Assembly (NCBI GenBank): GCA_963665325.3
Contig: OZ224045.1
Span: forward strand, 64,001 to 128,000
Source of the DNA: Alphaproteobacteria bacterium
GTDB taxonomy: Bacteria > Pseudomonadota > Alphaproteobacteria > Bin95
Reading direction: 5' to 3'
Length of the DNA: 64,000 nt
Part shown: in pieces, positions 25,368 through 61,333 of the stretch
Numbering within the stretch: the first letter of the stretch is position 1
Layout: each line of letters opens with the position of its first letter
Translations under genes and position numbers: made by a program
The notes under the pieces: generated by a model
Seen by the model: only the letters and a program-made list of their open reading frames with translations
What the model was told of the DNA's origin: nothing
Databases searched by the model: none

Positions 25368-26212
25368 GGTCGGGACTCAATTGGCCCACCAGGCGAGAGT
25401 TGCGGCGATGAAGACGGCTGACAAGAATGTATCGGCGCGTTTGTCGTAGCGGGTTGCGATACGGCGAAAGTCTTTGAGGCGACAGAACATACGCTCGATG
25501 CGGTTACGGAGCTTGTAGGCTGTGGCGTCGAAAGAGTGCGGGTTCTTCCGCGTGGACTGGGGCGGTATCACCGGTTCGCAGCCGCGGTCGGTGAGCCAGT
25601 TGCGGAACTTGCGGGCATCGTAGGCCCTGTCGGCGATCAATCGCTTTGGTGCGGGGACCTGCTTCAGGAGAGCCCCGACCCCGGAAAGATCGTGGGCCTG
25701 GCCGGGCGTAAGGGTGAATGCCACGGGCCGGCCAGTCTCATCGGTCAGGGCGTGAATCTTGGTCGTCCGTCCGCCGCGAGATCGCCCGATCGCGTGTTCA
25801 TATTCCCCCCTTTTGCGCCGGCGGCCGAACGGTGTGCCTTCACGTGAGTGGAATCGACAGCGGTCGTGCTGATCACGCCACTTGAGCCCGACAGGGCGTA
25901 GAACACGTCCTCCCACACACCCTGTTTGCTCCACCGGTTGAACCGATTGTAGATCGTCGTATAGGGGCCATACTCCGCCGGACAATCCCGCCAGCGCGCT
26001 CCGGTCTTCAACATGTGGACAATCCCAGAGATCACCCGGCGGTCATCAACCCGGTGTGCGCCGCGACGACCATGAGGAAGCCAAGGTTCAATCCGAGTCC
26101 ATTCCTCCTCGCTCAACCAAAACAGCGTCCGTGCCATTCAAACCTCCATATCGTTTGGAAACTTGAATCACATTCCAGACTCTGTCGGAATCCCCTAATC
26201 GAGTACAGACCC
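25367..26212 (-). mobile_element. IS5-family insertion sequence (IS427-like group), about 846 bp
   Basis: Imperfect terminal inverted repeats GGGTCGGGACTCAATT (25367-25382) and the reverse complement of 26197-26212 (GGGTCTGTACTCGATT), 13/16 identical. Flanked by TA (CTAG context) on both sides; encodes a two-ORF transposase. Confidence 0.93.
25377..26137 (-). CDS. IS5-family transposase, orfA (26137-25745) and orfB joined by a probable -1 frameshift
   Basis: orfA: LSEEEW..DDRRVISGI..GARWRDCP..YGPYTTIYNRFNRWS..DST. orfB: GRSRGGRTTKIH, ADRAYD, RNRIERMF.RLKDFRRIATRYDK. Slippery run AAAAGGGGGG on the minus strand near 25805-25814. Confidence 0.92.
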
Positions 26213-26221
26213 TAGCCCGGG

Positions 26222-29730: not shown

Positions 29731-31104
29731 ATGACCGATATCTCCTCTGCCACTATCGCCGAACTGGGCCAGGCGCTGCGGGCCGGCCGGGTGACGGCGC
29801 GCGGCCTGCTGGAGCAGGCGCTTGCCAACCGCAACGAGGCGTTCGGCGCATACAAGCTCTGGATGCCGGATTATGCGGCCCGGGCTGCCGACCTCGCCGA
29901 TGCCGCGTTCACGCAGGGCCTCGATTTCGGGCCGTTGCAGGGCTTGCCGGTGTCGGTGAAAGACCTGTTCGGCCTCGCCGGCGCGCCGACACATGCCGGC
30001 GCCCCGAAGCCGCTGCCTGCCTCCTGGGAGACTGAGGGGCCGGTTGTAACTGCAGTCCGGAACGGGCTTGCAGTCGTTACCGGCAAGACACACACGGTCG
30101 AATTCGCCTTCGGCGGCGTCGGCTCGAACCCGCATTGGGGCACGCCGCGCAATCCCTGGGGCGGAACGGCCCACCGCGTGCCGGGCGGCTCCAGCGCCGG
30201 CGCCGGCGTCTCGTTGCTGGAGGGCACGGCAGTCGTCGCGCTTGGCTCCGACACGGCCGGTTCGGTGCGCGTTCCGGCAAGCTTCACCGGCACGGTCGGC
30301 GTTAAGACCAGCTATGGACGCTGGTCGCTGGAAGGCATCGTACCGCTCAGCCCTTCGCTCGATACCGCGGGCGTGCTGACCCGCTCGGTCGCGGACGCCG
30401 CGCTTGCCTTCGCTGCCATAGATCCCATCTGCCGGACGCCGCCGGGGCCGGCAGACCCGGCCGGGCTCAGGCTGGGCGTGGTCGAGAGCTTCTTCGAGGA
30501 TTGCGGTCCGGGTGTGGCGGAGGTCGTGCGGGCCGCCCTTGCCGAGCTCGAGGACCGGGGCGCAGAGGTACGGTCCTTCGATTTCCCGGAAGTCGCCGTC
30601 GCCAACGAAGTCTTCGGGAAGGGCGGGCTGGCGGTGCCCGAATTCGTCGCCTTTATCGAAAACGAGCTGCCCGAATTCAAGGCGACGCTGGACCCCAATG
30701 TTCGCAGCCGCTTCGAGATATTCGGGACGACTACGGCCACGGACTATCTCGGCCGCAAGATGCGTCTCGCCCGCGCCGCGCAGGCGGCGAGCGAACGACT
30801 TGCCGGTATCGACGCCGTGGTCGGGCCGACGACGCCGATCACAGCGCCGCTGTTGCAGCATGCGGCCGAAGGGGAGGGCTATCGGACGCACAACATGGCG
30901 GCGCTCCGCAACACCATGCCGGGCAATATGCTGGAACTTTGCGGGCTTACGATCCCCGCGGGTCTGGACGGGAACGGCATGCCGGTCGGCCTGCAACTTC
31001 TCGCCGGGCGCGGCATGGACGAGCGGCTGATGTCTATCGGGCTCGCCGTCGAATCCGTCATTGGTCCGGCCTCCCGCCGCCTGGGGTCCCCTCCGGGCAT
31101 GTGA
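29731..31104 (+). CDS. Amidase-signature family enzyme
   Basis: GPLQGLPVSVKDL, GKT, RVPGGSSAG, GSDTAGSVRVPA, PVGLQL. Confidence 0.92.
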   Translation: MTDISSATIAELGQALRAGRVTARGLLEQALANRNEAFGAYKLWMPDYAARAADLADAAFTQGLDFGPLQGLPVSVKDLFGLAGAPTHAGAPKPLPASWETEGPVVTAVRNGLAVVTGKTHTVEFAFGGVGSNPHWGTPRNPWGGTAHRVPGGSSAGAGVSLLEGTAVVALGSDTAGSVRVPASFTGTVGVKTSYGRWSLEGIVPLSPSLDTAGVLTRSVADAALAFAAIDPICRTPPGPADPAGLRLGVVESFFEDCGPGVAEVVRAALAELEDRGAEVRSFDFPEVAVANEVFGKGGLAVPEFVAFIENELPEFKATLDPNVRSRFEIFGTTTATDYLGRKMRLARAAQAASERLAGIDAVVGPTTPITAPLLQHAAEGEGYRTHNMAALRNTMPGNMLELCGLTIPAGLDGNGMPVGLQLLAGRGMDERLMSIGLAVESVIGPASRRLGSPPGM

Positions 31105-31933: not shown

Positions 31934-32710
31934 ATGCCTGAAGGATTGGTCGAAGCGAGTATCGACGAACGCGGCGTGGCGCGCGTCGCCATCGACAACC
32001 AACGCCGCCTCAATTGCCTGAGCGGCGCGACGGCGCAAGCCTTCGCCGATGCCGTGAATGCGTATTCCGGGCGCAGCGACCTTCGGGTCGTGGTGGTGAC
32101 CGGCAACGGCCCCAAGGCCTTCATGGGCGGGGCGGACCTGCGCGAACTGGGCGGCCTTGATCCGGTGTCAGGCCGTGCGTTCATCAGCCGCATCCACGCC
32201 ATGTCGAAGGCGCTTCGGGACTGCCCGGTTCCCGTGATCGGGCGGATCAACGGCTATTGCCTGGGCGCCGGACTCGAGGTCGCGGCGGCCTGCGACATGC
32301 GCGTCGCCTCCGACAATGCAGTGCTGGGAATGCCGGAGGTGAAGGTCGGCCTGCCTTCGGTCGTGGAAGCCGCGCTTTTCCCGCAATTGATCGGATGGGG
32401 CAGGGCGAAGCTGCTCTGCTACACCGGCGAGAACATCGACGCGGCAGAAGCGCTCTCCTGGGGGCTGGTCGAGAAGGTGGTGCCCGCGGATGCACTCGAC
32501 GATGCAGTGGAGCAGTGGGTCGGGCAGATTCTCGAAGGCGGCCCGCGCGCCATCCGGCTCCAGAAGGAGCTGATCCGCGAATGGGAGGCCATGCCGGTAA
32601 ACGACGCCATCCAGGCCGGCATCCGCAGCCTCGTACGCGCCATGGAAACCGACGAGCCGAAACGCATGATTGCCGAAACGCTGGAACGCCTGGCGAAACG
32701 CAAGGGCTGA
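31934..32710 (+). CDS. Enoyl-CoA hydratase/isomerase family protein
   Basis: AFMGGADL, PVIGRINGYCLGAGLE, DMRVA, MPEVKVGL, EALSWGLV. RBS GGAG upstream. Confidence 0.92.
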   Translation: MPEGLVEASIDERGVARVAIDNQRRLNCLSGATAQAFADAVNAYSGRSDLRVVVVTGNGPKAFMGGADLRELGGLDPVSGRAFISRIHAMSKALRDCPVPVIGRINGYCLGAGLEVAAACDMRVASDNAVLGMPEVKVGLPSVVEAALFPQLIGWGRAKLLCYTGENIDAAEALSWGLVEKVVPADALDDAVEQWVGQILEGGPRAIRLQKELIREWEAMPVNDAIQAGIRSLVRAMETDEPKRMIAETLERLAKRKG

Positions 32711-32822
32711 GCGCGCGTTTCGGGTCCAAGCCTGAAATCGCCGGCCCGGTCCCGGAAGAAGGTTGCGTCTGTGGTCTTCTGTGGTTTGTTCCACTATACC
32801 AGAAAAAAATCCGCCAATGGGC

Positions 32823-32849
32823 TTGATCCTGAAATTTCTGTGTTAGAAT
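32823..32849 (+). promoter_or_regulatory. Putative sigma70 promoter with extended -10
   Basis: TTGATC (32823-32828), 15 nt spacer, TG-n-TAGAAT (32841-32849), with an A-tract just upstream (AGAAAAAAAT) in otherwise GC-rich DNA. No credible ORF downstream. Confidence 0.55.
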
Positions 32850-32891
32850 GATGCAGAAGGAGGCGGCTTCCGGAGGCCGCCCCGCCTTCCA

Positions 32892-32918
32892 CGCCGGCGC
32901 CGGCGCCGGCGCCGGCGC
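32892..32918. repeat. (CGCCGG)4-CGC self-complementary microsatellite
   Basis: cgccggcgccggcgccggcgccggcgc read directly. Confidence 0.85.
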
Positions 32919-33316
32919 AAAGAAATCCAATTGGAACCCACGGGAGACGTGCGCCTTGCATTTGCTTTGCGCGCGCAGGCGCAATCAGGCGCGCGAACCG
33001 CGCCGCCGCGAAACGCGCCCGCCCGCGCCCGTCCGCGATTGCGCGCGGAAATAGGGTTCCGCCGCAACGGGGCTGGCGGAAGGAAGACCGGAACGAAAGG
33101 GAACGAAACGGGATGAGGGCACGATGGTCGGACGCAGACAGACGCAGGCCTCGCGGGGGTGGGTGCTCATGACATTTTGCAGGAGGTTCCGCTGCTCGGG
33201 GAGCAGGCCGCCGGCGCGGAGGACAAAACGAAGACGGATCGAGAGGACAGACCCTTGCCGAAAGAACGGCTTCATGCCGGAAGAGACAACAGCTCATGCT
33301 CTATCCGTATGGGGAT

Positions 33317-33346
33317 CATGACAAAACATGACACTTCATGACACTC
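33317..33346. repeat. Three 10-bp tandem repeats CATGACAnnn
   Basis: CATGACAAAA CATGACACTT CATGACACTC; a fourth isolated CATGACA at 33168. Confidence 0.9.
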
Positions 33347-33459
33347 CACTGGAGTGGGCCCCTGGGCGGAGTGGGCCCCGCTGCAAGGCCCCTGCCGGAA
33401 GCCGGCGATAGGCGGTGCTGCCGCGTACGACCGCCGATTCATCCGGATCGGACCGCGTT

Positions 33460-34557
33460 CTAATCCGCCGCTCGCTCCCGGACGATCCAGCCGCCGCCGA
33501 GCACGCGGCCGCTCTCGTAGAACACGGCGGCCTGTCCGGCGGCGATGCCGTACTCCGGCTCGTCGAGAAGGACTTCAACGGTGTCGCCGCGTGGGTAGAG
33601 GGATGCGGACCGGGGCTCTGCGGTCGAGCGGATGCGGACTGCCGCCCTCTGGCCTTCCGTCGGCGCCTCGCCGTCTCCGAGCCAGTTGACCTCGCGTACC
33701 CGGAAGCGGTGGCGCCCGAGCGCCTCGCGTGGGCCCACGACGACCCGGTGGCGGTCCGGATCGAGAGCCAGCACGAAGAGCCGCTCGCCATCGGCGGCAT
33801 TGCCGAGGTCGAGCCCGCGCCGCTGGCCGACGGTGAAATTGACGATGCCCTCGTGACGGCCGAGGACGCGGCCGTCCCGGTCCACGATCTCGCCCGGCTC
33901 CAGCGCCCCGGGCCGCAGGCGTGCGACGATATCGGCATAGCGGCCATCCGGCACGAAGCAGATGTCCTGGCTGTCCGGCTTCTCCGCCACCGGCAGGGCC
34001 AGCCGCGCGGCTTCCTGCCGCACCCGGTCCTTGGGCATGCCGCCGAGCGGGAAGCGCAGGAAATCGAGCTGCTCGCGGGTGGTGGCGAACAGGAAATAGC
34101 TCTGGTCCTTGCCGGCGTCCTCGGCCCGGTGCAATTCCGGGCCCGGCAGGCGCTGCACATAATGGCCGGTAGCGAGCGCGTCCGCTCCGAGGTCCTTCGC
34201 TGTCGCCAGCAGGTCGCGGAACTTCACCGTCCGATTGCACTGCACGCAGGGCAGGGGCGTTTCCCCGGCGAGGTAGCTGTCGGCGAAATCGTCCATGACG
34301 GCGGCCCGGAACCGGCTCTCATAGTCCAGCACATAGTGCGGGATGCCGAGCCGGTCCGCGACCGCGCGCGCGTCGTGAATGTCCTGCCCGGCGCAGCAGG
34401 CGCCCTTGCGCTGTATCGCCGCGCCGTGGTCGTAAAGCTGGAGCGTGATGCCGACGACCTCGTAGCCCGACTCTGCAAGCAGCGCGGCGGTGACGGAACT
34501 GTCCACACCGCCGGACATGGCGACGACCACGCGGGAAGATGTCGGAAGATCGAGCAT
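33460..34557 (-). CDS. mnmA: tRNA 2-thiouridylase
   Basis: [67 protein letters not shown]. Confidence 0.96.
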
Positions 34558-34643: not shown

Positions 34644-36959
34644 TCACGCCTCGATGATGGACGGGGGCGTAAACGCGGTGATTGCGGGCGCGTCGCCCTC
34701 GAACCGTTCGACCTCCACCAGCGCGGTCTGGGCCGCGCAGCACTGGGTAAGCGTCGATGTCGGCTTGTCGTTGGTGAGCACGTTCGGATTGCCGTGCTTC
34801 TCCAGGCTTCCCGGCACTGCCGGATCGACGGGATCGAACCAGGCGCCGGTCGCAAGCTCCACTACGCCACGTCGGATCGCGTCGCTGACGACGACGCCGG
34901 CGAGGCAGGCGCCGCGATCATTGAAGACGCGCACGATATCGCCGTCCGCGATGCCCCTTCGGGCCGCATCGTCCGGGTTCATCCGCATCGCCTCGCGCCC
35001 GGCGACCTTGGCGGCTCGGCTGACCGAACCGCAGTCGAGCTGGCTGTGGAGCCGTGCGCGTGGCTGGTTCGAGAGCATGTGGAGCGGAAAGCGCTCCACC
35101 TTGTCGCTGCCGAGCCACTCCACCGGCTCCACCCAGGTCGGATGACCCGGAGCGTCGTCATAGCCGAAACCCGCGATGGTTTCCGAGTAGATCTCGATTT
35201 TTCCCGAGGGGGTCTTAAGCGGCGAGCCGTCCGGGTCCTGCCGGAAGTCGGCGAAGGGAATTGGAGGGCTGTCGGGCTGCGGGAGTTCGAAATGCCCGGC
35301 CTCCCAGAAGCTCTCGAAGCCCGGCATCTCGATGCCGTCCTTCGCGACGCGTTGGCGATAGAGATCGTAGAGGTGGCGAAGCCATTCCATCTCGCTGCGG
35401 CCCTCGGTGAAGGCCTCGGCAAAACCGAGCCGGTCGGCCAGACCGCTGTAGATGTCGTATTCGCTGCGCGCTTGGCCGACAGGATCGATCGCCTGCTGGC
35501 TCGCCAGAACGAAGCGGTCGAACTGGGACGCTGCAATGTCGTTCCGTTCGAGCGTCGTCGTGCAGGGCAGCACGATGTCCGCCCGCTTCGCCGCCGGCGT
35601 CCACCAGGGCTCGTGGATGATGATGGTGTCCGGTTTGGCCCAGCCCTTGAGCAGGTTGTTCAGGTCCTGATGCTTGTGGAACGGGTTGCCGCCGCACCAG
35701 TAGATCAGCCGGATATCGGGGTAGTGGCGGTCCTCCCCGTTGAAGCTGTATGGCGCGCCGGGGTTGAGCAGCATGTCCGCCAGCCGCGCGACAGGAATCG
35801 TGGTGGCGACATCGTTCTTTCCCGTGAGAAGCCTGGGCGGCGCCACCTGCCGGGTTGCCGCGCCGATGCCGTGCATGGCGCCGTATCCGAAGCCGAACCC
35901 GCCGCCCGGCAGGCCGATCTGGCCCAGCATCGCCGCAAGCGCGATGGTCATCCAGTAGGGCTGCTCGCCCCGGTCGGCGCGCTGGACCGACCAGCTCACC
36001 CCGATCATGGTGCGCGAAGAGGCCATCCGGCGGGCGAGGCTGCGGATCGCTCCGGCCGGCATCCCGGCGATTCCGGAGGCCCAGTCGGCGTCTCTGGCGA
36101 TCCCGTCCGCCGCGCCGAGGAGATAGGCGGCAAGCCTGTCGAACCCGGTGCAGTAGCGGGCGAGGAAATCGGCATCGTGCAGGTCTTCGCTGAGGAGCGT
36201 GTGCGCGAGCCCCAGCATGACGGCGAGGTCGGTGTTGGGCCGGACCGGGTGCCATTCGGCTTCGGCCTCGTCTCCCGTGTCGTCGCGGATCGGGCCGATG
36301 CAAACGAACCGGGTCCCGGCTTCCACCGCGCGCCTGTGCCAGTCGGCGGACTCATGTGCGCCGACACCGCCCTGATTGACCATGGAGTTCTTGGGCGGCA
36401 TGCCGCCGAATGCCACCATCAGCTCCGTGTGCTCGACGATCACGGGCCATGTGTTGACCGGCCCGAACACCGGCTGCATCGAGCCGACGATGCGCGGGAC
36501 GATGACGCTGGCTGCGCCGACGCTGAAACTCGTCACCTGGTCGATGAAGCCGCCATGGAGGTTGAGGAAGCGGCCAAGCTGGCTGCGCGCATTGTGGAAG
36601 TTGCCGGCGCTGCCCCAGCCGGAACTGCCGTAGATGGCTTCGTTGCCGTATTCCTTTGCGACCCGTTGGAGCTCGCCCGCCACCAGGTCGAGCGCGCGGT
36701 CCCAGCTCACCGCGACGAAAGGCTCCGTCCCCCGCGCGGCGGCGTTGGCGCCCGGTCCGCCTTCCAGCCACGACTTCCGCACCGCAGGCGTCGCAATGCG
36801 GCACTCGGCATGAACTGCGTCCGGCAGCGCCTGGATGAAAGGCGCCGGGCTCGGGTCCATGCCGAACGGCTCAACGCCGACCAACCGCCCGTCGGTCGCC
36901 GTCGCCGTGAAGGCGCCCCAATGGCTCGCCCCGAATGCGCTCCGCGTTCCGTCAGGCAT
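34644..36959 (-). CDS. Molybdopterin oxidoreductase, DMSO reductase family (BisC/TorZ-like, no signal peptide)
   Basis: SHWGAF, VRKSWL, FVAVSWD, RPNTDLA, QRADRGEQ, GGNPFH, ADIVLP.TT.LERND, TPSGKIEI, RLHSQ, HGNPNVLT. Confidence 0.92.
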   Translation of the reverse strand: MPDGTRSAFGASHWGAFTATATDGRLVGVEPFGMDPSPAPFIQALPDAVHAECRIATPAVRKSWLEGGPGANAAARGTEPFVAVSWDRALDLVAGELQRVAKEYGNEAIYGSSGWGSAGNFHNARSQLGRFLNLHGGFIDQVTSFSVGAASVIVPRIVGSMQPVFGPVNTWPVIVEHTELMVAFGGMPPKNSMVNQGGVGAHESADWHRRAVEAGTRFVCIGPIRDDTGDEAEAEWHPVRPNTDLAVMLGLAHTLLSEDLHDADFLARYCTGFDRLAAYLLGAADGIARDADWASGIAGMPAGAIRSLARRMASSRTMIGVSWSVQRADRGEQPYWMTIALAAMLGQIGLPGGGFGFGYGAMHGIGAATRQVAPPRLLTGKNDVATTIPVARLADMLLNPGAPYSFNGEDRHYPDIRLIYWCGGNPFHKHQDLNNLLKGWAKPDTIIIHEPWWTPAAKRADIVLPCTTTLERNDIAASQFDRFVLASQQAIDPVGQARSEYDIYSGLADRLGFAEAFTEGRSEMEWLRHLYDLYRQRVAKDGIEMPGFESFWEAGHFELPQPDSPPIPFADFRQDPDGSPLKTPSGKIEIYSETIAGFGYDDAPGHPTWVEPVEWLGSDKVERFPLHMLSNQPRARLHSQLDCGSVSRAAKVAGREAMRMNPDDAARRGIADGDIVRVFNDRGACLAGVVVSDAIRRGVVELATGAWFDPVDPAVPGSLEKHGNPNVLTNDKPTSTLTQCCAAQTALVEVERFEGDAPAITAFTPPSIIEA

Positions 36960-46755: not shown

Positions 46756-49164
46756 ATGAATAGTTCCAGCGGCGACCTCTATCCCGTTCTCCCACTGCGG
46801 GACATTGTGGTTTTTCCCCACATGATCGTGCCGCTTTTCGTCGGGCGCGAGAAATCCGTGCTGGCACTCGAAGAGACGATGAAGAACGACAAGCAGATTC
46901 TATTGGTCACGCAGAAGGATGCTGCAACCGACGAGCCGGGACCGGACGATATCTTCCGAATCGGCACGATAGGCTCCGTGCTTCAACTCCTGAAGCTGCC
47001 GGACGGCGCCGTGAAAGTGTTGGTCGAAGGGCAGGGCCGCGCCGAAATCCTAGATTATACCGACCGGGATGAGTTCTTCGAAACGTCGGCCCGGGATGTC
47101 CCGGAAGGCGGTGAGGGGGACCCGCAGGAAATGTCGGCGCTGGTCCGTTCGGTGGTTTCGCATTTCGAGAACTACGTAAAGCTCAACAAGAAGATTCCGC
47201 CCGAGGTCATAGCCACGGTAGGCCAGATCGAGGATCCTTCCAAGCTCGCCGACACCGTTGCGGCCCATCTGAGTCTCAAGATTGCCGAGAAGCAGGAACT
47301 GCTTGAAACGATACCCGTCTTCCAGCGTCTGGAGCGCGTTTACGCGTATATGGAAGGCGAGATGGATGTGCTCGAAGTTGAGAAACGGGTCCGCTCGCGC
47401 GTCAAGCGGCAGATGGAACGCACGCAGCGAGAGTACTATCTGAATGAGCAGATGAAGGCGATCCAGAAGGAGCTGGGCGACGGCGGGGAGGGCCGCGACG
47501 AGCTCTCGGAGATCGAGGAGGCGATCAAGAAGACACGTCTCTCCAAAGAAGCAGCGGAGAAGGCAACCGCGGAGCTCAAGAAGCTGCGTAGCATGAGCCC
47601 GATGTCGGCCGAGGCCACGGTCGTGCGCAACTATCTCGACTGGATGCTCGGCATCCCCTGGAAAAAGCGAACCAGAGTGAAGAGGGACGTGCGCGCCGCA
47701 GAGATTGTTCTCGACGAAGACCACTACGGTCTGGAAAAGGTCAAGGAGCGGATCGTCGAATATCTGGCGGTCCAGAATCGCGTGCGGAAGCTGAAGGGTC
47801 CGATCCTCTGTCTGGTCGGGCCGCCCGGTGTTGGCAAGACTTCGCTCGGCAAGTCGATCGCACGGGCCACGGGGCGTAATTTCGTGCGCATGTCGCTGGG
47901 CGGGGTACGCGACGAGGCCGAGATCCGCGGACACCGTCGCACCTATATCGGATCCATGCCCGGCAAGGTGGTCCAAGGCATGAAGAAGGCAAAGTCGTCC
48001 AACCCGCTTTTCCTGCTGGACGAGGTAGACAAGCTTGGTGCGGACTGGCGCGGCGACCCGTCATCGGCACTTCTGGAAGTGCTCGACCCCGAACAGAACA
48101 GCACTTTCAACGATCATTACCTGGAAGTGGACTACGACCTGTCGGATGTGATGTTCGTCACGACGGCGAATACGCTCAGGCTGCCTCAACCCTTGCTTGA
48201 CCGTATGGAAGTGATCCGTATTCCCGGATACACCGAGGACGAGAAGGTCGAAATCGCCCGCCGCCACTTGATTAGCAAGCAATTGACGGCGCACGGGCTG
48301 AAGAGCGAAGAATGGTCGATTTCGGATGGCGCTCTGCGCGACCTTATCCGGTACTACACGCGCGAGGCCGGCGTCCGAAACCTGGAGCGGGAGATCGCGA
48401 ACCTGCAGCGCAAGGCGGTGAAGGAGCTGGCGACCAGTGAAACCGGGGCAGTTAGCGTCGAGAGCGACAATCTCGAAACCTATGCCGGTGTGCGCAAGTT
48501 CCGCTACGGACAGACGGAACTGGAAGATCTTGTCGGGGTCACGACGGGCCTTGCATGGACAGAGGTAGGCGGCGAGATCCTTTCTGTCGAGGCCGTCGTC
48601 ATGCCGGGCAAGGGCAACGTCAAGCATACCGGCAAGCTCGGCGATGTCATGCAGGAGTCGGTGGAGGCGGCGCGCAGCTTCGTTCGTTCCAGGATGCTGC
48701 GGTTCGGAATCGTTCCACCGGAATTCGACCGCCGGGACATCCATGTTCATGTGCCGGAAGGGGCAACGCCGAAGGACGGACCCTCCGCCGGCGTCGCCAT
48801 GTGCACGTCGATCATTTCCGCGCTTACGGCTATCCCGGTTCGGCGCGATGTTGCGATGACCGGGGAAATCACGCTGCGCGGCCGTGTTCTGCCGATCGGC
48901 GGGCTGAAGGAGAAATTGCTTGCGGCTTTACGGGCCGGCATCACCACCGTGTTGATCCCCGAGGAAAATATGAAGGACCTTGCGGAGATACCTGACACTG
49001 TGACGAACAGCCTTGAGATCGTTCCGATCGAAACCGTCGATGAAGTGCTGAGCCGGGCGTTGACCAATATTCCAACGCCGATAGACTGGCAACCTCCGGA
49101 GGCGGTGGAGACCCCTCCGTCGGCCGTAGAAGGGGCAACTTTCGGAGGGATGGTTACGCACTGA
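46756..49164 (+). CDS. lon: Lon protease
   Basis: [38 protein letters not shown]. Confidence 0.98.
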
Positions 49165-49274
49165 TATGCAATCGGGTTCTATATAGTTCCCGATTGTGTA
49201 TGGTTTCTCTGGACGTTTGCAGTGAATCCGGTTAGCAACTGCATCATCCTCAGCGAAGACGGGAGGGAGAAAGA

Positions 49275-49547
49275 ATGAACAAGAACGATCTGGTTGGAGC
49301 TGTTGCGGTATCCGCAAACTTGCAACGGGCCGAGGCCACCCGGGCCGTGGAGGCTGTTTTCGATACCATCAGCAAGGCGCTTGCCGACGGTCAGGATGTG
49401 CGCCTGATCGGTTTCGGGACCTTTTCGGTAGCCCACCGGCCGGCATCCAAGGCGCGGAACCCCAGGACGGGTGAAACGATCGATGTTGCTCCGTCGAACC
49501 AGCCGAAGTTCAGGGCCGGGAAAGGCTTGAAAGACGCCGTGAATTGA
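49275..49547 (+). CDS. hupB: DNA-binding protein HU
   Basis: MNKNDL, LIGFGTF, RNPRTGE, PKFRAGK.LKDAV. Confidence 0.96.
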   Translation: MNKNDLVGAVAVSANLQRAEATRAVEAVFDTISKALADGQDVRLIGFGTFSVAHRPASKARNPRTGETIDVAPSNQPKFRAGKGLKDAVN

Positions 49548-49574
49548 CGGCAGGTCGGGCGAGCCTGAGCCTGG

Positions 49575-49650
49575 GGGCGATTAGCTCAGCCGGGAGAGCA
49601 CCTCGTTTACACCGAGGGGGTCGGCGGTTCGATCCCGTCATCGCCCACCA
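49575..49650 (+). tRNA. tRNA-Val(TAC)
   Basis: Acceptor GGGCGAT/ATCGCCC, anticodon arm CCTCG-TTTACAC-CGAGG, CCA end. Confidence 0.97.
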
Positions 49651-49808
49651 CTAATGTTTCTGGATAACCAATTGACAGTTTTGTTATCTGGCCGTCCTGC
49701 GTGCTCAGAGTGAATTGGCGTTTTGTCCGGTTTGTTCCAAGAATAGCTGCGGCATAGAAGAAATTATCTCGCCTTTTGGTGCTAAGCCAGCAAGGCAACG
49801 ATGTCAGT

Positions 49809-50018
49809 TCAAGTCTTGGCTTTTGCAGCAAGCACCCAGGCCACTTGATCGACCGGGACCCGGCGCGAGGAGGCTTTGCCCAGACGGCGGTCGAACAGAC
49901 CCTCCAGCCCGTCCTCCTCCCAGCGCCGCCGGTAGCGCCGGAACGTCCACTCCGACATCCCCAGAAGCTCCGCCGCGTCCAGCGCCGAAAGACGCCGTGA
50001 CCCGAAGCGGCCCAGCAC
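49809..50018 (-). pseudogene. Truncated transposase N-terminal HTH (ISNCY/IS1202-like)
   Basis: RLSALDAAELLGMSEWTFRRYRRRWEEDGLEGLFDRRLGKASSRRVPVD; stops abruptly with no DDE domain. Confidence 0.75.
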
Positions 50019-50041
50019 ACCCTCAGAATTGGGCCGCGTCC

Positions 50042-50070
50042 TTGACTGATCGGCAGGTCTCGGCTAGACG
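50042..50070 (+). promoter_or_regulatory. Putative sigma70 promoter for tRNA-Asp
   Basis: TTGACT-N17-TAGACG just upstream of tRNA-Asp. Confidence 0.55.
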
Positions 50071-50087
50071 GTCGCAGTTGCGTCTGC

Positions 50088-50164
50088 GGGGGTGTAGCTC
50101 AGTCGGTTAGAGCGCTGGCCTGTCACGCCAGAGGCCGCGGGTTCGAGTCCCGTCACTCCCGCCA
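50088..50164 (+). tRNA. tRNA-Asp(GTC)
   Basis: Acceptor GGGGGTG/CACTCCC, anticodon arm CTGGC-CTGTCAC-GCCAG, CCA end. Confidence 0.97.
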
Positions 50165-50281
50165 CTAACCCCTGTCGCTGGCCGCATGTCCGGAGGGCCT
50201 TGTCAGGGCTTTGCAGCCGTATCTTCGGCCACTATGGTGCGCCGGGATCAGGTTCGAGAAAAGGGAGGCGGGCCCAGGACG

Positions 50282-50647
50282 ATGGATGCGCTTCTGGCGG
50301 AGTATGTACCGATATTGATCTTCACGGCTGTTGCCGGAGCGCTGGCGGCAGGCGCCGTGATCGCTTCAATGGTCATTGCGCGGCAAAAGCCGGACTCCGA
50401 AAAGCTCTCGACCTACGAATGCGGCTTCGAGGCTTTCACCGACACCCGGGGGCGCTTCGATGTGCGCTTTTATCTGGTCGCCATCCTGTTCATCATCTTC
50501 GATCTTGAAGTGGCGTTCCTGTTTCCCTGGGCGATTTCGCTTGGCGGTATCGGCATGCTTGGTTTTTGGTCGATGGTGATTTTCCTTGGAGTGCTGACGG
50601 TCGGATTCATCTACGAATGGCGCAAAGGGGCGCTTGAATGGGAATGA
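50282..50647 (+). CDS. nuoA: NADH-quinone oxidoreductase subunit A
   Basis: [33 protein letters not shown]. Confidence 0.97.
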
Positions 50648-51174
50648 TCGGCCAGCCGGTGCTCGGGCCGGGAGTGGAGCAAGACGCATTGCTGCGCGGG
50701 GTCAACGACGAACTCCAGGACCGCGGCTATGTGGTTGCACAACTGGACAAACTGGTGAATTGGGCACGTTCGGGGTCGTTGTGGCCGATGACTTTCGGGC
50801 TTGCCTGCTGTGCCGTGGAAATGATGCACACGGCCTGCTCGCGTTACGACCTCGACCGCTTCGGCGTCGTGTTTCGTCCGAGCCCGCGACAGTCCGATGT
50901 CATGATCGTGGCTGGTACGCTTACCAACAAGATGGCGCCGGCGCTTCGCAAGGTTTACGACCAGATGGCCGAGCCGCGCTGGGTGATCTCCATGGGCTCG
51001 TGTGCCAATGGCGGCGGCTACTACCACTATTCCTATTCCGTGGTCCGGGGCTGCGACCGAATCGTGCCGGTCGATGTGTATGTGCCAGGTTGTCCGCCGA
51101 CCGCCGAAGCGTTGCTCTACGGCGTGCTGCTGCTTCAGAAGAAGATCCAGCGTACCGGCACGATAACACGCTGA
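50638..51174 (+). CDS. nuoB: NADH-quinone oxidoreductase subunit B
   Basis: [27 protein letters not shown]. Confidence 0.98.
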
Positions 51175-51187
51175 ACCGGACCCATAG

Positions 51188-51787
51188 ATGGACGAAGCCC
51201 TGCAAGACCTCGCCGAGCATGTCGAGGCGGCGATAGGCGAGAAGGTTGTGCTCGAACCCGGAGCCTCGGAATTGGTGTTGCGGGCCGGACGGGATGCTCT
51301 GCTTGAGGTGCTAACCTTTCTGCGCGATGACGCAAATTGCCACTTCAGATGCCTCGTCGATCTTTGCGGTGTCGACTATCCGGAGCGTTCGGAGCGGTTC
51401 GAGGTTGTCTACAATTTGCTGAGTCACCGCCACAACCTTCGGATTCGCGTCAAGACAGCGACGGACGAAGATATGCCGGTGCCTTCCGCATCGGGGCTCT
51501 TCAGTTCGGCAGTCTGGCTCGAGCGGGAAGCCTGGGACCTCTACGGCATTTTCTTTTCAAACCATCCGGACCTGCGCCGACTGCTGACCGACTACGGATT
51601 CGAAGGCTACCCGATGCGCAAGGATTTCCCGCTCACCGGGTATGTCGAAGTCCGGTACGACGACGAACAGAAACGCGTGGTCTATGAGTCGGTGGAACTG
51701 ACACAGGAGTTCCGTTCCTTCGACTATCTCAGCCCGTGGGAGGGACCGCTGCCTGGTGACGAGAAGGCGGAGGCGCCTGATGGCTGA
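51188..51787 (+). CDS. nuoC: NADH-quinone oxidoreductase subunit C
   Basis: [35 protein letters not shown]. Confidence 0.97.
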
Positions 51788-52958
51788 GGCCCAGATCCGG
51801 AACTACACATTGAATTTCGGCCCCCAGCACCCGGCCGCTCATGGTGTATTGCGGATGGTCATGGAATTGGACGGTGAGGTTGTGGACCGCATCGACCCCC
51901 ATATCGGCCTCCTGCACCGCGGAACCGAGAAACTCATCGAGCATAAGACCTATCTCCAAGCGGTACCTTATTTCGATCGACTCGACTATGTCGCCCCGAT
52001 GAATCAGGAACACGCCTTTGCGCTTGCAACCGAGAGGCTGCTTGGCATCGACGTGCCGGAGCGCGGTCAGTATATCCGCGTCTTGTTCTCCGAGATTTCG
52101 CGTATCCTGAACCATCTGTTGAACCTGACGGCTTTTGCTTTGGATGTCGGCGCCATGACGCCCATGCTTTGGGGTTTCGAGCAGCGCGAATTGTTGTTGG
52201 AGTTCTATGAACGCGCGAGCGGCGCCCGCTTTCACGCCGCCTATTTCCGACCCGGTGGTGTCCATCAGGACCTCCCGGAAGGGATGCTCGACGACATTGC
52301 CGAATGGTCCGCGGCATTTCCCAAGTTCGTTACCGATATGGAAGCGCTGCTAAACGAGAACCGTATCTTCAAGCAGCGCACCGTCGATATCGGACGCGTA
52401 TCGGCGGAGGATGCGTTGGACTGGGGATTTTCGGGGCCGATGCTGCGGGCGTCGGGCGTTCCTTGGGACTTGCGCAAGGCTCAGCCCTACGATGTGTATG
52501 ACCGGATCGATTTTGATATTCCGGTGGGCAAGAACGGTGACTGCTACGACCGCTATCTGGTCCGCGTCGAAGAGATGCGCCAGTCGCTCCGCATCATTGA
52601 CCAATGCGTGCGGGAGATGCCGGATGGCCCGGTCGTCACCGAGAGCAACAAGGTGGCCCCACCCAAGCGTGGCGAGATGAAGCAGTCGATGGAGGCGCTG
52701 ATCCATCATTTCAAACTCTACACCGAGGGTTATCGGGTGCCGCCCGGGGAAACCTACACGGCAGTGGAGGCACCGAAGGGCGAGTTCGGCGTCTATCTGG
52801 TCTCGGACGGCACCAACAAACCATACCGTTGCAAGATTCGGGCTCCCGGTTTCGCGCATCTGGCTGCCATGGACTTCCTGTCGCGCGGCCATATGCTTGC
52901 CGACAGCGTTGCGATTCTGGGCGCCATGGACATCGTGTTCGGAGAGGTCGATCGATGA
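51780..52958 (+). CDS. nuoD: NADH-quinone oxidoreductase subunit D
   Basis: [32 protein letters not shown]. Confidence 0.98.
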
Positions 52959-53554
52959 GCGGGGGTGCAGAAACAGCCGAGAACTTCGCCTTTACGGCCG
53001 ACCATCTAGAGACTGCGAAGGCCGTGGTCGCAAAATATCCCGAAGGTCGGCAACAAAGCGCTGTAATGCCGTTGCTGGACCTGGCTCAGCGACAACTCGG
53101 GTGGACATCCCCCGCCGTGATCGAATACGTAGCCGACTTCCTAGGTCTGCCTGCGATCCGCGTGTGGGAGGTCGCCAGCTTCTACACGATGTACTACCGC
53201 GAGCGGGTGGGGCAATACCGCCTGCATGTCTGCACGACGACACCGTGCTGGCTGCGCGGGTCCGATGAAGTCGTTCGGGTCTGCAAGGAAAAGACAGGGC
53301 TCGAATTTGGAGAGACCGACAAGAGGAGGCTTTTCACGCTGCTGGAAGTCGAATGCCTCGGAGCGTGCGTCAATGCGCCAATCCTCCAAGTCAATGATGA
53401 CTACTACGAAGACCTTGACGCTGCCCGGACGGCATCGCTGCTCGAAGCCTTGGCCGAAGGCCGACCGCCGGCCGCCGGAACTCTGAGGGAGCGGCTGAAT
53501 TCCGCGCCGGAAGGCGGCAAGACGACGCTGCTGGAGGCTGACGCCCGATGCTGA
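52955..53554 (+). CDS. nuoE: NADH-quinone oxidoreductase subunit E
   Basis: [20 protein letters not shown]. Confidence 0.97.
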
Positions 53555-54831
53555 GCGACCGGGATCGTATTTTCACAAATCTTTACGGCGAACTTGACTG
53601 GACGTTGAAGGGCGCCCGCGCCCGCGGCGACTGGGACGGCACGGCCGATCTGATTGCCAAAGGACGCGACTGGCTGGTCGAAGAGGTCAAGGCATCGGGA
53701 TTGCGCGGGCGTGGCGGCGCGGGATTTCCCACTGGCCTCAAATGGTCCTTCATGCCGAAGCAAAGCGATGGACGCCCCGCCTATCTGGTGGTCAACGCCG
53801 ACGAGGGAGAGCCCGGCACGTGCAAGGACCGCGACATGATGCGCTGGGACCCGCACAAGCTGGTCGAGGGCTGCCTTATCGCTTGCGCGGCGATGGGAGC
53901 TGGCGCCGCATACATCTATGTGCGCGGCGAGTTCTACAACGAGGCGCGACACCTGCAGTACGCCATCGACGAGGCTTACGAGGCAGGCCTTATCGGCCGT
54001 AATGCCTGCGGTTCAGGCATCGATTGTGACATTTTCGTGCATCGAGGCGCCGGCGCCTATATCTGCGGCGAGGAGACTGCCCTCATCGAGAGTCTGGAGG
54101 GCAAGAAGGGACAGCCGCGACTGAAACCCCCATTCCCGGCCATGGCAGGGCTCTACGGCTGTCCGACGACCGTGAACAATGTTGAGACCATCGCCGTGGT
54201 GCCAACGGTCCTGCGCAGAGGCGCGTCGTGGTTCTCCGGCTTCGGGCGCAGCAACAACACCGGCACCAAGGTGTTCTGCATTTCGGGTCATGTAGACCGC
54301 CCTTGCAATGTCGAGGAGGCGATGAGTATCCCGATGAGGGAGCTTATCGAGAAGCATGCCGGCGGTGTGCGGGGCGGCTGGGACAATCTGAAAGCCGTCA
54401 TTCCCGGAGGTTCTTCAACGCCGATCCTGCCGAAAAGCATCTGCGACGAGGTGCTGATGGATTTCGATGCGCTTCGCGACGTACAGAGCGGGCTCGGTAC
54501 AGCTGCCGTGATCGTGATGGACCGTTCCACGGACGTCGTGCGCGCGATTGCGAGGCTTGCACGCTTCTACGCTCACGAAAGTTGCGGGCAGTGCACGCCT
54601 TGCCGCGAGGGAACCGGCTGGATGATGCGCGTAATGGAGCGGATGGCGTCAGGCCGTGCCCGTGTCGAGGAGATCGACATGCTGCTTGATGTATCCAAGG
54701 AAATCGAAGGGCATACGATCTGCGCGCATGGCGACGGTTCCGCGTGGCCGATCCAGGGGCTGATCCGCCATTTCAGGCACGAAATGGAGGACCGTATCCT
54801 TACTCACCGTATCCGGGCCGCGGCGGCCTGA
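53548..54831 (+). CDS. nuoF: NADH-quinone oxidoreductase subunit F
   Basis: [37 protein letters not shown]. Confidence 0.98.
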
Positions 54832-54851
54832 TTCGGGAGAGGGGGGAGCCG

Positions 54852-56891
54852 ATGCCGAAGCTTACCGTCGACGGAATAGAGGTCGAGGTCGCGCCCGGTA
54901 GCACCGTCCTTCAGGCGATAGAGGCCGCTGGTAAGGAGGTGCCGCGGTTCTGCTATCACGAACGTCTTTCGATTGCGGGCAATTGCCGTATGTGCCTCGT
55001 CGAAATCCGTCCAGGACCGCCGAAACCGGCCGCCTCATGCGCTATGCCCGCCGGCGACAATATGGAAGTGCTGACCGCCAGCCCGATGACGCAGAAGGCA
55101 CGCAAGGGTGTGATGGAGTTCCTGCTCATCAACCACCCGCTCGATTGCCCGATCTGTGACCAGGGTGGCGAGTGCGACCTACAGGACCAGGCCTTGTTCT
55201 ACGGCGCGGACACGAGCCGCTTCGAGGAAAACAAGCGCGCGGTGCCGGACAAGGACATGGGACCGCTCATCAAGACGACAATGACGCGGTGTATCCATTG
55301 TACCCGGTGCATTCGGTTCGCTGAGGAAGTCGCGGGCGTGTCGACGATCGGTGCGATCGGGCGCAGCGAGCAGTTGGAAATCACCACGCTCGAACACGCC
55401 GTGGCAAGTGAGCTTTCCGGAAATGTCATCGATCTCTGCCCGGTTGGTGCGCTTACCTCGAAGCCTTATGCCTTCAATGCGCGCCCATGGGAGTTGCGCA
55501 AGACGGAAGGCATCGACGTGTTCGATGCGCTTGGCGCGAATATCCGAATCGATTCGCGCGGCCCGGAAGTGCTGCGCGTTTTGCCGCGCCTGAACGAAGA
55601 GGTGAACGAGGAGTGGCTCGGCGACAAGTCTCGCTTCGCGCATGACGGCCTCCGCCGCCAACGTCTGGACCGGCCTTATGTGCGTCGGGAGGGCCGGCTG
55701 CACCCGGTCAGTTGGGGCGAGGCCTTTGCAGCTATCCAGGCAAGGCTCAGGGGTCGTTCCGGCATGAATATCGGCGCAATCGCCGGCGATCAGGCCGATG
55801 CTGAGGCAATGCTGGCGCTCAAGGATCTGATGAAGGCCCTTGGTTCGCCGAATCTGGATTGCAGGCAGGACGGGGCGGCTGCGATTCCCGGCCAACGAGC
55901 CAGTTATCTGTTCAACTCCACCGTCCAGGGCATCGAAGAGGCAGACGCGCTGCTGTTGATCGGTTGCAATCCGCGTTGGGAGGCCCCGGTGCTCAACGCG
56001 CGGATCCGCAAACAATGGCTTGCCGGCGGCATGCAGATCGGCATGATCGGCGAGCGGCAGGATCTCGGCTATCGCTACGACCATCTGGGCGAAGGCGGGA
56101 AGGCTTTGCGGGGCGTGGCTGCCGGAAGAAACCGTTTCTGCGCCGTGCTGAAGAATGCATCGCGTCCGATGCTGATCCTCGGCACCGGCGCTCTCTCGCG
56201 ACCGGACGGCGCGGCGGTGCTGGCTGCAACCCAGCGCATAGCTGAACTGAACGGCCTAATCCGCGAGGATTGGAACGGCTTCAACGTGTTGAATCGGGCG
56301 GCGTCGCGGGTTGGGGGCCTGGACCTCGGATTCGTGCCCGGCGAGGGCGGAACGGATACCGCAGGCATGTTGTCCGGCGCCGTCGATACGCTTTTTTTGC
56401 TCGGCGCCGATGAGATAGAACTGTCCGGCCTCGGCGATGCATTCGTCATCTATCAGGGGCACCATGGCGACGCAGGTGCTGCGCGGGCCGACGTCATCCT
56501 GCCGGGCGCGGCCTATACCGAGAAATCGGGCACCTGGGTCAACCTGGAAGGACGCGTGCAGCGCAGCGAACGGGCGACCTTTCCGCCGGGGGAGGCGAGG
56601 GAGGACTGGGCGATCCTGCGCGCCCTATCGGATGTGCTGGAGAAGCCGTTGGCATACGATTCGCTGCCGGCATTGCGCGCCCGCCTGGGCTGGACGAATC
56701 CCGTATTCGATACGCAGGACGATGTCGCGCCGGCGCAATGGCACCGCACCGCTCCGACCGGCCGGATAGACGATGCGCCATTCACCAGCCCGATTTCCAA
56801 CTACTACATGACCGACCCGATTTCGCGCGCCTCCGAAACGATGGCGGTTTGCACGGAAACTTTTCTCGCAGCGGAAGCCCGCAATGGTTAG
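54852..56891 (+). CDS. nuoG: NADH-quinone oxidoreductase subunit G
   Basis: [40 protein letters not shown]. Confidence 0.98.
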
Positions 56892-57927
56892 CTTCTGGAG
56901 CGCCTACGTCTGGCCGGCGGCTGCGATCGTCGGCTACATCCTGCTCATCGTTCTGCCGCTGCTTGGCTGCATTGCCTATCTCATTCTAGCCGAGCGTAAG
57001 GTCATTGCATCCATGCAGATGCGCAAGGGACCGAATGTGGTCGGGCCCTTCGGTTTGCTCCAGCCGGTGGCCGACGGCCTGAAGCTGTTGACCAAGGAAA
57101 CGATTATTCCCGCCGGCGCCAATCGCGTCGTCTTCATGCTGGCGCCGATGCTGACCTTCGTGCTGGCGCTCGTCGCCTGGGCCGTGATTCCCTTCGACCT
57201 TGGCTGGGTATTGGCGGACATCAATGTTGGGGTGCTCTACCTCTTCGCCATCTCGTCCCTCGGCGTCTATGGCATCCTGATGGCGGGGTGGGCCAGCAAC
57301 TCGCGGTATGCGTTTCTCGGCGCATTGCGGTCCGCAGCGCAGATGGTCTCCTATGAAGTCTCGATCGGCTTCGTCATCGTGACGGTGCTGCTGTGCACCG
57401 GCTCCCTGAACCTTTCGGTCATCGTCCAGGCGCAGCAGGGGCCTGCCGGGCTGTTTTCCTGGTTCTGGTTGCCGCTGCTGCCCATGTTTGTCGTGTTCTT
57501 CGTGTCTGCGCTGGCCGAAACCAATCGCGCGCCCTTCGACCTGCCGGAGGCCGAGGCCGAACTTGTTGCCGGCTACAATGTCGAATATTCGGCAATGACG
57601 TTCGCTCTCTTCTTTCTGGGCGAGTATGCGAATATGATCCTGATGAGCGCCATGACTGTTGTGCTCTTTTTGGGGGGCTGGCTTTCGCCGGTCCCGTACG
57701 AGCCGTTTACATGGATTCCTGGCATTATCTGGTTCGCGTTGAAGACGGCCTTGGTCCTGTTCGCCTTTCTCTGGGTAAGGGCGACTTTCCCGCGTTACCG
57801 CTACGACCAGTTGATGCGACTCGGTTGGAAGGTGTTTCTACCGCTGTCCCTTCTCTGGGTGGTCGTAACGGCCGGTGTGCTGGTGGCATTCGATTGGGTG
57901 CCTGAGCCGGTCGCGGCGCAGTCGTGA
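56884..57927 (+). CDS. nuoH: NADH-quinone oxidoreductase subunit H
   Basis: [41 protein letters not shown]. Confidence 0.98.
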
Positions 57928-57947
57928 ACGACAGGGAGTATTGAGCG

Positions 57948-58436
57948 ATGGCAGCTTTCGACCGCAGCATGCGCAGCTTCCTGCTGGCAGAACTGGTCTC
58001 CGGCATGTGGCTCACCTTGAAATACATGTTCAAGCCCAAAGTGACGCTGAACTATCCTTATGAAAAGGGTCCTCTAAGCCCGCGCTTTCGAGGCGAACAC
58101 GCGCTGCGCCGGTATCCGAACGGCGAGGAGCGCTGCATTGCCTGCAAGCTGTGCGAGGCCATCTGTCCGGCCCAGGCAATCACCATTGAAGCGGAGCCGC
58201 GCGAAGACGGCAGTCGGCGAACCACGCGCTACGATATTGACATGACGAAGTGCATCTATTGCGGCTTTTGTCAGGAGGCCTGTCCCGTCGATGCCATTGT
58301 CGAGGGCCCGAATTTCGAATTCGCGACCGAGACGCGCGAAGAGCTGATGTACAACAAGGAAAAGCTTCTGGCGAACGGCGACCGCTGGGAGGCCTCGCTC
58401 GCAGACAATCTCGCCCTAGACGCGCCTTATCGCTGA
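57948..58436 (+). CDS. nuoI: NADH-quinone oxidoreductase subunit I
   Basis: [12 protein letters not shown] and [12 protein letters not shown]. Confidence 0.98.
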
Positions 58437-58451
58437 GACAGGGAGGAGGCA

Positions 58452-59060
58452 GTGATCGTTCAAGCCTTGGCGTTCTACGTCTTCGCGGCGGTTGCGACCG
58501 CGGCCGGAGTCATGGTGATCTCCGCCCGCAACCCAGTGCATTCGGTCCTGTTCCTTATTCTGGCCTTCTTCAATGCGGCAGGCTTGTTCGTCCTGTTGGG
58601 TGCAGAGTTCCTAGCGATGCTTCTGGTGGTGGTCTATGTCGGCGCTGTGGCGGTCCTGTTCCTGTTTGTGGTCATGATGCTCGACATCAACTTTGCGGAG
58701 TTGCGCGAGGGGTTCCTGCAATACCTTCCCATCGGTGCGCTGGTCGGGGTCGTCCTGCTCGCCGAACTGGCGCTGGTCGGCGGCAGCTGGGTTCTTTCCG
58801 AGGGTGCCGGGGCGACATCCCTGCCGGTTCCCGATGAAAAAATGACCAACACGCACGCTCTGGGCCACGTCCTGTACACGGACTACATCTATCTCTTCCA
58901 AGCGGCCGGTCTGGTGCTGCTGGTCGCCATGATCGGCGCGATCGTGCTGACGCACCGCAGGCGCACAGGGGTGCAAAGGCAAAGGATCGTCACCCAGATC
59001 AACCGGCGCAGAGAAGACACGATCGAGGTCGTCAAGGTTCCGGCCGGGGAAGGCCGGTGA
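58452..59060 (+). CDS. nuoJ: NADH-quinone oxidoreductase subunit J
   Basis: [35 protein letters not shown]. Confidence 0.97.
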
Positions 59061-59371: not shown

Positions 59372-59391
59372 GGCAAGGCAGGCAAGCGCAC

Positions 59392-61329: not shown

Positions 61330-61333
61330 AAGC

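Follow-up and report, generated by a model that had tools for sequence, protein, structure and literature searches.

What occupies the ~750-bp gap (32711–33459) that separates mnmA from a convergent enoyl-CoA hydratase gene in contig OZ224045.1 of an Alphaproteobacteria bacterium, and why should a promoter-like sequence lie where both neighboring genes end? We addressed this question in a 64,000-nt stretch of the contig (the window, to which all positions refer), in which the gap is of nearly ordinary composition (63.7% G+C compared to 64.6% for the window). An earlier interpretation made from the letters alone (the sequence-only reading) had proposed a promoter-led, multi-stem noncoding element, being either an independently transcribed structured RNA or a multi-copy self-transcribing repeat. 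We found that the gap carries a noncoding element that is conserved in other genomes at the nucleotide level, retains its promoter positions, occurs elsewhere in tandem units, and is absent from the orthologous site of a close relative. Judging from these features, the element is probably a new promoter-led modular noncoding RNA (ncRNA) gene, and its product would most likely be a regulatory RNA.

The family of homologues was traced through junk open reading frames (ORFs) called on GC-rich noncoding DNA, with the bases of each homologue inferred from its protein translation. The translated 167-aa minus-strand ORF, the longest in the gap (32794–33297), matched four proteins (P0001–P0004; E = 2e-79 to 6e-14). 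A profile of these four retrieved 66 proteins at E ≤ 1e-3, including 12 at E ≤ 1e-10, from 1.84 billion representatives, and a 24-sequence profile retrieved 56 proteins from a word-indexed collection. When a 26-protein subset was compared by tblastn with the whole window, all 23 high-scoring segment pairs (HSPs) fell inside the gap. Among the 108 pooled proteins, 52 mapped to the gap, and to nothing else in the window, with 79 HSPs at E ≤ 1e-3, all of them on the minus strand, split 30/23/26 over the three minus frames and most dense over 32920–33130, where coverage reached up to 46 HSPs. The reading frame switched along the element in 26 of the 52 mapped proteins; for example, P0002 starts in the 167-aa ORF frame and continues in the one used by a 96-aa ORF, and P0024, P0026, P0039, and P0040 read the core of the element in the frame of a 74-aa ORF. 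The use of all three minus frames and the frequent switching between them indicated that conservation acts on the nucleotide sequence rather than on a protein, as did the frameshifting indels that break every frame on both strands. Accordingly, at least 52 'proteins' of public collections (105–423 aa; among P0001–P0004 and P0020–P0123) seem to be false ORFs called antisense to the element. The 66 and 56 protein matches established that the element has many homologues. It is this conservation in other genomes, and not the palindromes or the −10 sequence themselves, that lifts the observation above chance.

Tests of coding potential agreed with the noncoding character that the sequence-only reading had assigned to the gap. 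Measured against host codon usage, real genes averaged 0.45 bits per codon (5th percentile, 0.24), the best gap ORF gave 0.148 bits per codon and the longest one −0.40, and none of the gap ORFs reached the coding level. Pfam searches detected no domain in any of seven gap ORFs or of 32 long family members, and a look-up in the ESM Atlas returned a best score of 0.78 with a low recognition value (969), giving no usable lead; a weak GC-periodicity signal was present at 33110–33290. Scanning the whole window with Rfam 15 at gathering cut-offs yielded only three tRNAs and nothing in the gap. Permissive E-value scans of 32500–33700, 32840–33140, and 33100–33470 gave a best E of 0.17 and a top score of 19.3 bits compared to a cut-off of 92, and ARAGORN detected neither a tRNA nor a transfer-messenger RNA (tmRNA) in 32500–33700. 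With no Rfam 15 family matched, the earlier impression that the element is not recognizable as a tmRNA, RNase P RNA, signal recognition particle RNA, 6S RNA, or riboswitch was borne out, and the gap element belongs to a family absent from Rfam 15. A search of the literature at the level of titles and the beginnings of abstracts revealed nothing relevant, and a description lying deeper in the papers than this level is possible. A type I toxin-antitoxin locus was considered and set aside, as the gap contains no small hydrophobic ORF.

The extended −10 singled out by the sequence-only reading falls within a σ70-type promoter pattern, TTGATCC-N12-GTTAGAAT (32823–32849), reading rightward, and its key positions were kept across the family. 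We tabulated the compatibility of each window base with 50 mapped proteins, leaving out the near-identical P0001 and P0002; 16 distant members covered the promoter. In the −35-like element, T32823, T32824, G32825, and A32826 were compatible in 16, 14, 15, and 15 of these 16 members, and in the −10 element T32844, A32845, A32848, and T32849 were compatible in 15, 16, 16, and 16, although A32845 and A32848 carry no information in the main frame, where each is the third base of a codon. T32849 was forced to be identical in 15 of the 16. Non-key positions were poorly kept (32843 in 1 of 16 and 32852 in 3 of 16), and the spacer 32827–32843 was compatible in 192 of 272 cells. The pattern fits the Caulobacter housekeeping consensus, TTGACGS-N10-14-GCTANAWC. 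Further upstream, the A/T tract reads NYYR in P0003 and P0004, so that the U-run required by a minus-strand terminator is broken while A/T richness is retained. Other signals considered in the gap did not survive comparison with the family or, for all but the first, with the consensus sequences: a minus-strand promoter in the 3′ module (TTGTCAT-N12-GATAGAGC) has a poorly conserved −10 TA; at a candidate EcfG-type promoter (GGAAC-N17-CGAT) the family retains CGAT or CGGT and not CGTT; a Pho box was rejected for a repeat period of 10 rather than 11, and an alphaproteobacterial SOS box for a spacing of N6 rather than N7. A group II intron domain V, a dif site, and a tRNA-like 5′ end were likewise rejected from reading the sequence.

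Downstream of the promoter, the element is built from a 5′ hairpin, a GC-rich core, and a 3′ module, and every complementary pair listed in the sequence-only reading was found where it had been placed. The best-kept stretch of the whole family is the nearly invariant ATGGGGATCATGACAAAACATGACA (33309–33333) of the module. CATGACA occurs here three times with a 10-nt period (at 33317, 33327, and 33337), and four of the nine CATGACA sites of the window lie in a 176-nt stretch inside the gap (33168–33343). According to the family profile, a core-plus-module unit of ~100 aa, corresponding to ~300 nt, is repeated in other genomes, four times in P0085, three times in P0100, and twice in about 10 others, and the promoter-proximal part remains single even where the units repeat. 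Relatives carry ~75 nt more near 33160, at the partial module copy, and the (CGCCGG)4.5 microsatellite is variable in length, being 12 nt shorter in all four of the first homologues (P0001–P0004). Similar GCCGGC runs occur in the window at 30186–30209 and 5041–5057. The tail from 33342 onward showed, among the first four homologues, a clear match only in the close relative P0001 (33442–33392). The sequence GGA appears 24 times on the plus strand and 9 times on the minus strand of 604 nt, compared to a 99th percentile of 23 for such windows. As separate observations, the first hairpin has a loop region (CGGCTTCCGG, 32864–32873) that is perfectly complementary to a 10-mer at 33395–33404, 521 nt downstream, and a 14-mer beside the module (33267–33280) is 79% complementary to 33391–33404.

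Weighing the conserved promoter and the modular layout together, we lean toward an independently transcribed ncRNA gene that would run rightward from about 32856 and consist of a conserved 5′ hairpin, a core, and reiterated modules. The housekeeping-type promoter would drive a transcript that begins at the conserved 5′ hairpin and continues through a GC-rich core of ~280 nt; the present copy would comprise one and a half units and end in the nearly invariant CATGACA-rich module (33268–33345), and in other genomes one promoter-proximal part precedes two to four repeats of the ~300-nt core-plus-module unit. The plus strand is taken as the transcribed one because the promoter is conserved and the minus-strand U-run at 32802–32808 is broken in P0003 and P0004. 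Transcription would thus be directed toward the 3′ end of mnmA. By displaying the same binding site several times over, such an RNA may serve as sponge or scaffold for a protein or a second RNA. The reiteration, the variable number of units, and the GGA-rich plus strand suggest a role of this kind, by titration or scaffolding, and the arrangement of one promoter followed by reiterated 300-nt units with a shared end motif points to the same type of mechanism. To our knowledge, titration or scaffold RNAs of this architecture have not been described in this lineage. More tentatively, and less likely than not, the family may represent a new class of large modular ncRNA of ~0.5 kb to ~1.25 kb (the latter with four units) confined to high-GC, mostly uncultured Alphaproteobacteria-like genomes, in which one promoter and 5′ hairpin precede ~300-nt units ending in an invariant GGGGAUCAUGACAAAACAUGACA module that titrates or scaffolds a partner, the whole being gained or lost between close relatives.

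Several results weigh against an RNA gene of this kind. On the plus strand, the folding of 32856–33100 was ordinary (z = −1.71), with 10 of 200 shuffles folding as well and 19% of 64 control folds (32 windows elsewhere, both strands) reaching z ≤ −1.7. The minus strand of the same segment folded better (z = −2.87), a value reached by 1 of 64 controls and 1 of 200 shuffles. For the whole gap, z was −3.45 on the plus and −2.89 on the minus strand (20 shuffles each). Since palindromes fold on both strands, this folding is a property of the DNA and not evidence specific to a plus-strand RNA. Covariation was examined in the plus-strand minimum-energy fold of 32856–33135 (89 pairs, 2127 cells) with 52 protein-inferred degenerate sequences from junk-ORF alignments, a test of low power. 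Incompatible cells numbered 290 compared to 296.8 ± 10.2 after permutation, where the bases were inferred from residues, and compatible double changes numbered 53 compared to 46.9 ± 5.4; two helices reached nominal significance, each with 2 of 300 permutations as extreme, but failed when all 10 helices and two measures were taken into account. The first hairpin, being conserved but nearly invariant, yields no covariation. The stems, which the sequence-only reading had put forward as RNA structure, therefore gained no support from the degenerate covariation test or from plus-strand folding. At the promoter, the 9-mer TGNTANAAT occurs once in the window compared to 1.18 expected from shuffles, and a consensus promoter scan of the gap returned no sites, a miss explained by the short spacing of 15 nt between TTGATC and the −10 (the standard hexamer spacing is 16–18 nt). 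No intrinsic terminator was found on the plus strand of the gap. The duplication inside the present copy (33032–33174 compared to 33188–33323) was weak, being matched by 59 of 500 genomic controls, whereas 2 of 500 shuffles scored as well. Finally, the closest relative lacks the element at this site.

This relative came from an mnmA-based scan of genome contigs that returned 80 loci. The sole close locus, L001, belongs to a metagenome-assembled genome of an Alphaproteobacteria bacterium and shares 90% amino-acid identity in MnmA, the next best locus reaching 68%. Both flanks of the gap align with L001, where the hydratase and mnmA stop codons lie only 13 nt apart, so the empty site called for by the sequence-only reading was indeed found. 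The extra ~730–740 bp lie between direct repeats of CGCGTT(T)C, which is present in a single copy in L001, a configuration that fits either target-site duplication by an insertion or a microhomology-mediated deletion in L001. Since only L001 shares the hydratase, short-chain dehydrogenase/reductase, and amidase neighbors of mnmA, insertion and deletion cannot be polarized. The C-terminus of MnmA differs at the junction, reading ...RERAAD-stop here (33460–33480) and ...REQMEAD-stop in L001 (7084–7104); because the two ends diverge exactly there, the event behind the gap difference also touched the end of the gene. A second difference lies beside mnmA: the segment 34619–37052, which carries a gene for a 771-aa molybdopterin oxidoreductase (34644–36959, minus strand), is missing from L001, where 34618 is joined to 37053. 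An att-like duplicate of the mnmA 3′ end (32736–32759 and 33462–33485) was rejected, as its score of 21 was equaled by 74 of 3000 controls and its left copy is unlike the mnmA end of L001.

These findings bring in a different explanation, a non-autonomous mobile or recombined insertion (a miniature inverted-repeat transposable element, MITE, or the remnant of an integrated element) that entered between the two stop codons, duplicated a short target, and carried the promoter and palindromes as cargo. The contiguous flanks and the 13-nt stop-to-stop distance in L001 favor it, as do the direct repeats CGCGTTTC and CGCGTTCT with their single counterpart there and the further difference from L001 beyond mnmA. 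The ends of the segment are also faintly inverted (GGTCC... and ...GGACC), their alignment over 22 bases having 18 matches and one 2-nt gap; however, the inverted alignment of GGTCCAAGCCTGA--AATCGCCGG with GGTCCGATCCGGATGAATCGGCGG scored 17, and 325 of 3000 random segment pairs did as well. Three pairs of family proteins share the same longest-contig size (983401, 90495, and 500654), and a separate promoter-proximal part is present in both P0003 and P0040, so that some organisms may have two loci in one genome. Within the window, by contrast, no second copy was found, blastn of the gap matching elsewhere only the GCCGGC microsatellite. The element was not detected in the 80 mnmA loci, where blastn and tblastx gave low-complexity noise and tblastn with 26 family proteins gave no match, nor in a plasmid collection searched by DNA and with four protein queries, nor in a phage collection searched by DNA. 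Of the multi-copy repeat proposed by the sequence-only reading, what stands is the hint of at least two loci in other genomes, while a single copy in 64 kb and none in the mnmA loci, plasmids, or phages speak against it. In addition, conservation is centered on the promoter, core, and module and not on the termini (only P0001 covers 33392–33442), the short flanking repeat marks a microhomology-mediated deletion in L001 equally well, no outgroup with shared synteny polarizes the event, and no transposase or integrase lies nearby. We therefore regard a mobile insertion as rather unlikely; if true, it would represent a new promoter-carrying element able to fire antisense into mnmA.

The same data bear on three further explanations. 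The minus strand could be the functional one, as a long 3′ untranslated region of mnmA or a processed small RNA (sRNA) that ends at the hairpin 32856–32889 and uses its CU-rich stretches (CCUCC four times, CUUUCGUUCC) as anti-Shine-Dalgarno seeds. The better minus-strand fold of 32856–33100 is consistent with this, CCTCC occurs four times on the minus and not at all on the plus strand, and mnmA reads into the region with no terminator-like site right past its stop. Yet the candidate −10 TAGAGC (33303–33298) is poorly kept, its critical bases being compatible in about four and two tenths of the members; the sequence following the hairpin lacks U-richness, and what the family would accommodate there is an opposite-strand −10 of the form TAnnnT; the T-run at 32802–32808 is broken in P0003 and P0004; and L001 has an intact mnmA with no element. 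We consider this improbable, and slightly more so a DNA-level array of protein-binding sites without an RNA of its own, in which the CATGAC repeats, the GGAACGAAA repeats, the GC palindromes, and the A/T-rich patch would resemble response-regulator clusters or iteron- and partition-like sites. Three CATGACA copies spaced at exactly 10 nt and a fourth one elsewhere, a module that is the most conserved stretch, palindromes that fold equally on both strands, and the lack of covariation in the degenerate test all suit such an array. On the other hand, the neighboring genes have no role in replication, partition, or regulation, the only conserved promoter lies ~470 bp upstream of the sites, which fall between gene ends with nothing obvious to regulate, and the conserved TTGAnnn-N12-nnTAnnAT is most simply a working promoter. 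A protein, encoded by the 167-aa minus-strand ORF or by a small plus-strand ORF (32848–33054 or 33159–33341), is scarcely credible. Many genomes have predicted ORFs of 129–423 aa across the element, and the weak GC-periodicity falls at 33110–33290, but codon usage is at the noncoding level (−0.40 to 0.15 compared to 0.45 bits per codon), the frames are spread 30/23/26 with 26 of 52 proteins switching, frameshifts break all plus-strand ORFs across the core and right half, no Pfam domain is present, and the Atlas recognition value is low (969).

Returning to the promoter-led ncRNA gene, we compared the element with known systems. Like the Csr/Rsm sponge RNAs (CsrB and RsmX/Y/Z/W), it is a stand-alone, promoter-led intergenic locus without an ORF, its module is reiterated in variable number, its presence varies between relatives, and its putative transcript is GGA-rich (24 compared to 9). 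Unlike them, it scores at best 12.5 bits against that clan (RsmW; cut-off 52), its units measure ~130–300 nt rather than the ~20 nt of their hairpins, and its nearly invariant motif is centered on CATGACA and not on a loop GGA. CsrA is uncommon in Alphaproteobacteria. The alphaproteobacterial tandem sRNA arrays (CcsR1-4, or alpha-r14 'cuckoo' RNAs, and AbcR1/2) share with the element homologous units placed head to tail in intergenic regions and, apparently in some cases, more than one locus per genome. Units of the CcsR/AbcR type are ~70–110 nt long, have their own terminators and CCUCCUCCC loops, and are represented in Rfam; the element differs in having no Rfam match and one promoter-proximal part before all units. 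With MITEs it has in common the lack of an ORF, presence or absence between close relatives, a 7–8-nt direct repeat that is single at the empty site, and faintly inverted ends. It departs from them in the nonsignificant inverted repeat, the single copy in 64 kb, the ~740-bp length, and the conservation across distant genomes of the promoter-core-module order rather than of the ends. The large RNAs OLE, GOLLD, ROOL, HEARO, and raiA resemble the element in their large conserved noncoding span (here no less than 530 nt, and as much as ~1.25 kb in the case of the 416-aa junk ORF that spans four units), their occurrence mostly in uncultured genomes, and their mis-annotation as hypothetical proteins; unlike those families, which rest on strong covariation, the element gave no covariation signal in the degenerate test, and it has no Rfam match to any of them. 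This comparison suggests that the element resembles reiterated-module sponge RNAs or tandem sRNA arrays most, yet it fails the membership tests run for them.

An RNA gene at this locus would matter in several ways. If unterminated, the transcript would extend in antisense orientation into the 3′ end of mnmA, in line with the sequence-only reading. Few large ncRNAs conserved among bacteria are known, and new biology has come from every one characterized so far. Gene callers systematically annotate the wrong strand of the element as a 'hypothetical protein', and probably no fewer than 50 of these database entries are spurious.

Positions of the features of the gap element, its flanks, and the alignments with the empty site in L001 (window coordinates)
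Feature	Position	Strand	Remark
Left flank aligned with L001	30066–32721		L001 9757–7104; 87% identity; blastn
Enoyl-CoA hydratase gene	ends 32710	+	Pfam ECH_1, E = 2e-42
Left direct repeat CGCGTTTC	32714–32721		just past hydratase stop; last stretch aligning with L001
Segment of ~730–740 bp	32722–33453		present here, absent at orthologous L001 site
Terminator-like hairpin followed by GTGGTTTGTT	32757–32780	+	possible hydratase-operon terminator; outside family-conserved part
−35-like TTGATCC	32823–32829	+	key bases kept in distant family members
Extended −10 TGTTAGAAT	32841–32849	+	read from sequence; key bases kept
First hairpin, GAAGG/CCTTC around GGCGGCTT/AGGCCGCC	32856–32889	+	at expected transcript start; contains AAGGAGG
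(CGCCGG)4.5 microsatellite	32892–32918		self-complementary; directly after first hairpin
GC-rich conserved core	32915–33130	+	covered by most homologues
Stem GCGCAAAG-AAAT/ATTT-G-CTTTGCGC	in core 32915–33130	+	
28-nt imperfect inverted arms	32966–32993 and 33024–33051		in core
Hairpin TTCCGCC/GGCGGAA	in core 32915–33130	+	
Purine-rich GGAACGAAA repeat	33078–33113	+	in core
Partial extra CATGACA-module copy (GGTGCTCATGACATTTTGCAGGAG)	33162–33185	+	
Conserved 3′ module, ~80 nt	33268–33345	+	holds ATGGGGATCATGACAAAACATGACA
Palindrome CACTCC-ACT-GGAGTG with two GGAGTGGGCCCC copies 17 nt apart	33342–33379		
Right direct repeat CGCGTTCT	33454–33461		overlaps first two bases of mnmA stop
mnmA stop codon	33460–33462	−	Pfam tRNA_Me_trans, E = 2e-72
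Right flank aligned with L001	33474–34618		L001 7084–5940; 88.6% identity; blastn

The gap had also been described as the largest gene-free one of the window. This holds if tRNA genes count as genes: in a crude codon-usage gene map, the ORF-free stretch 49165–50281 is longer and carries tRNA-Val and tRNA-Asp. An apparent 811-bp gap at 61330–62140, in the nuoL/nuoM region of the nuo operon, was dismissed as a gene-caller artefact in which nuoM is wrongly split. The corresponding part of the window (46822–64000) contains, in order, lon, tRNA-Val (49575–49650), tRNA-Asp (50088–50164), and the nuoA-N operon for complex I. Elsewhere in the window, an 87-aa DDE transposase fragment (Pfam DDE_Tnp_1_2; 25377–25640, minus strand) adjoins a 581-bp stretch without a good ORF (25641–26221), and the region 25377–26221 is probably a decayed insertion sequence.

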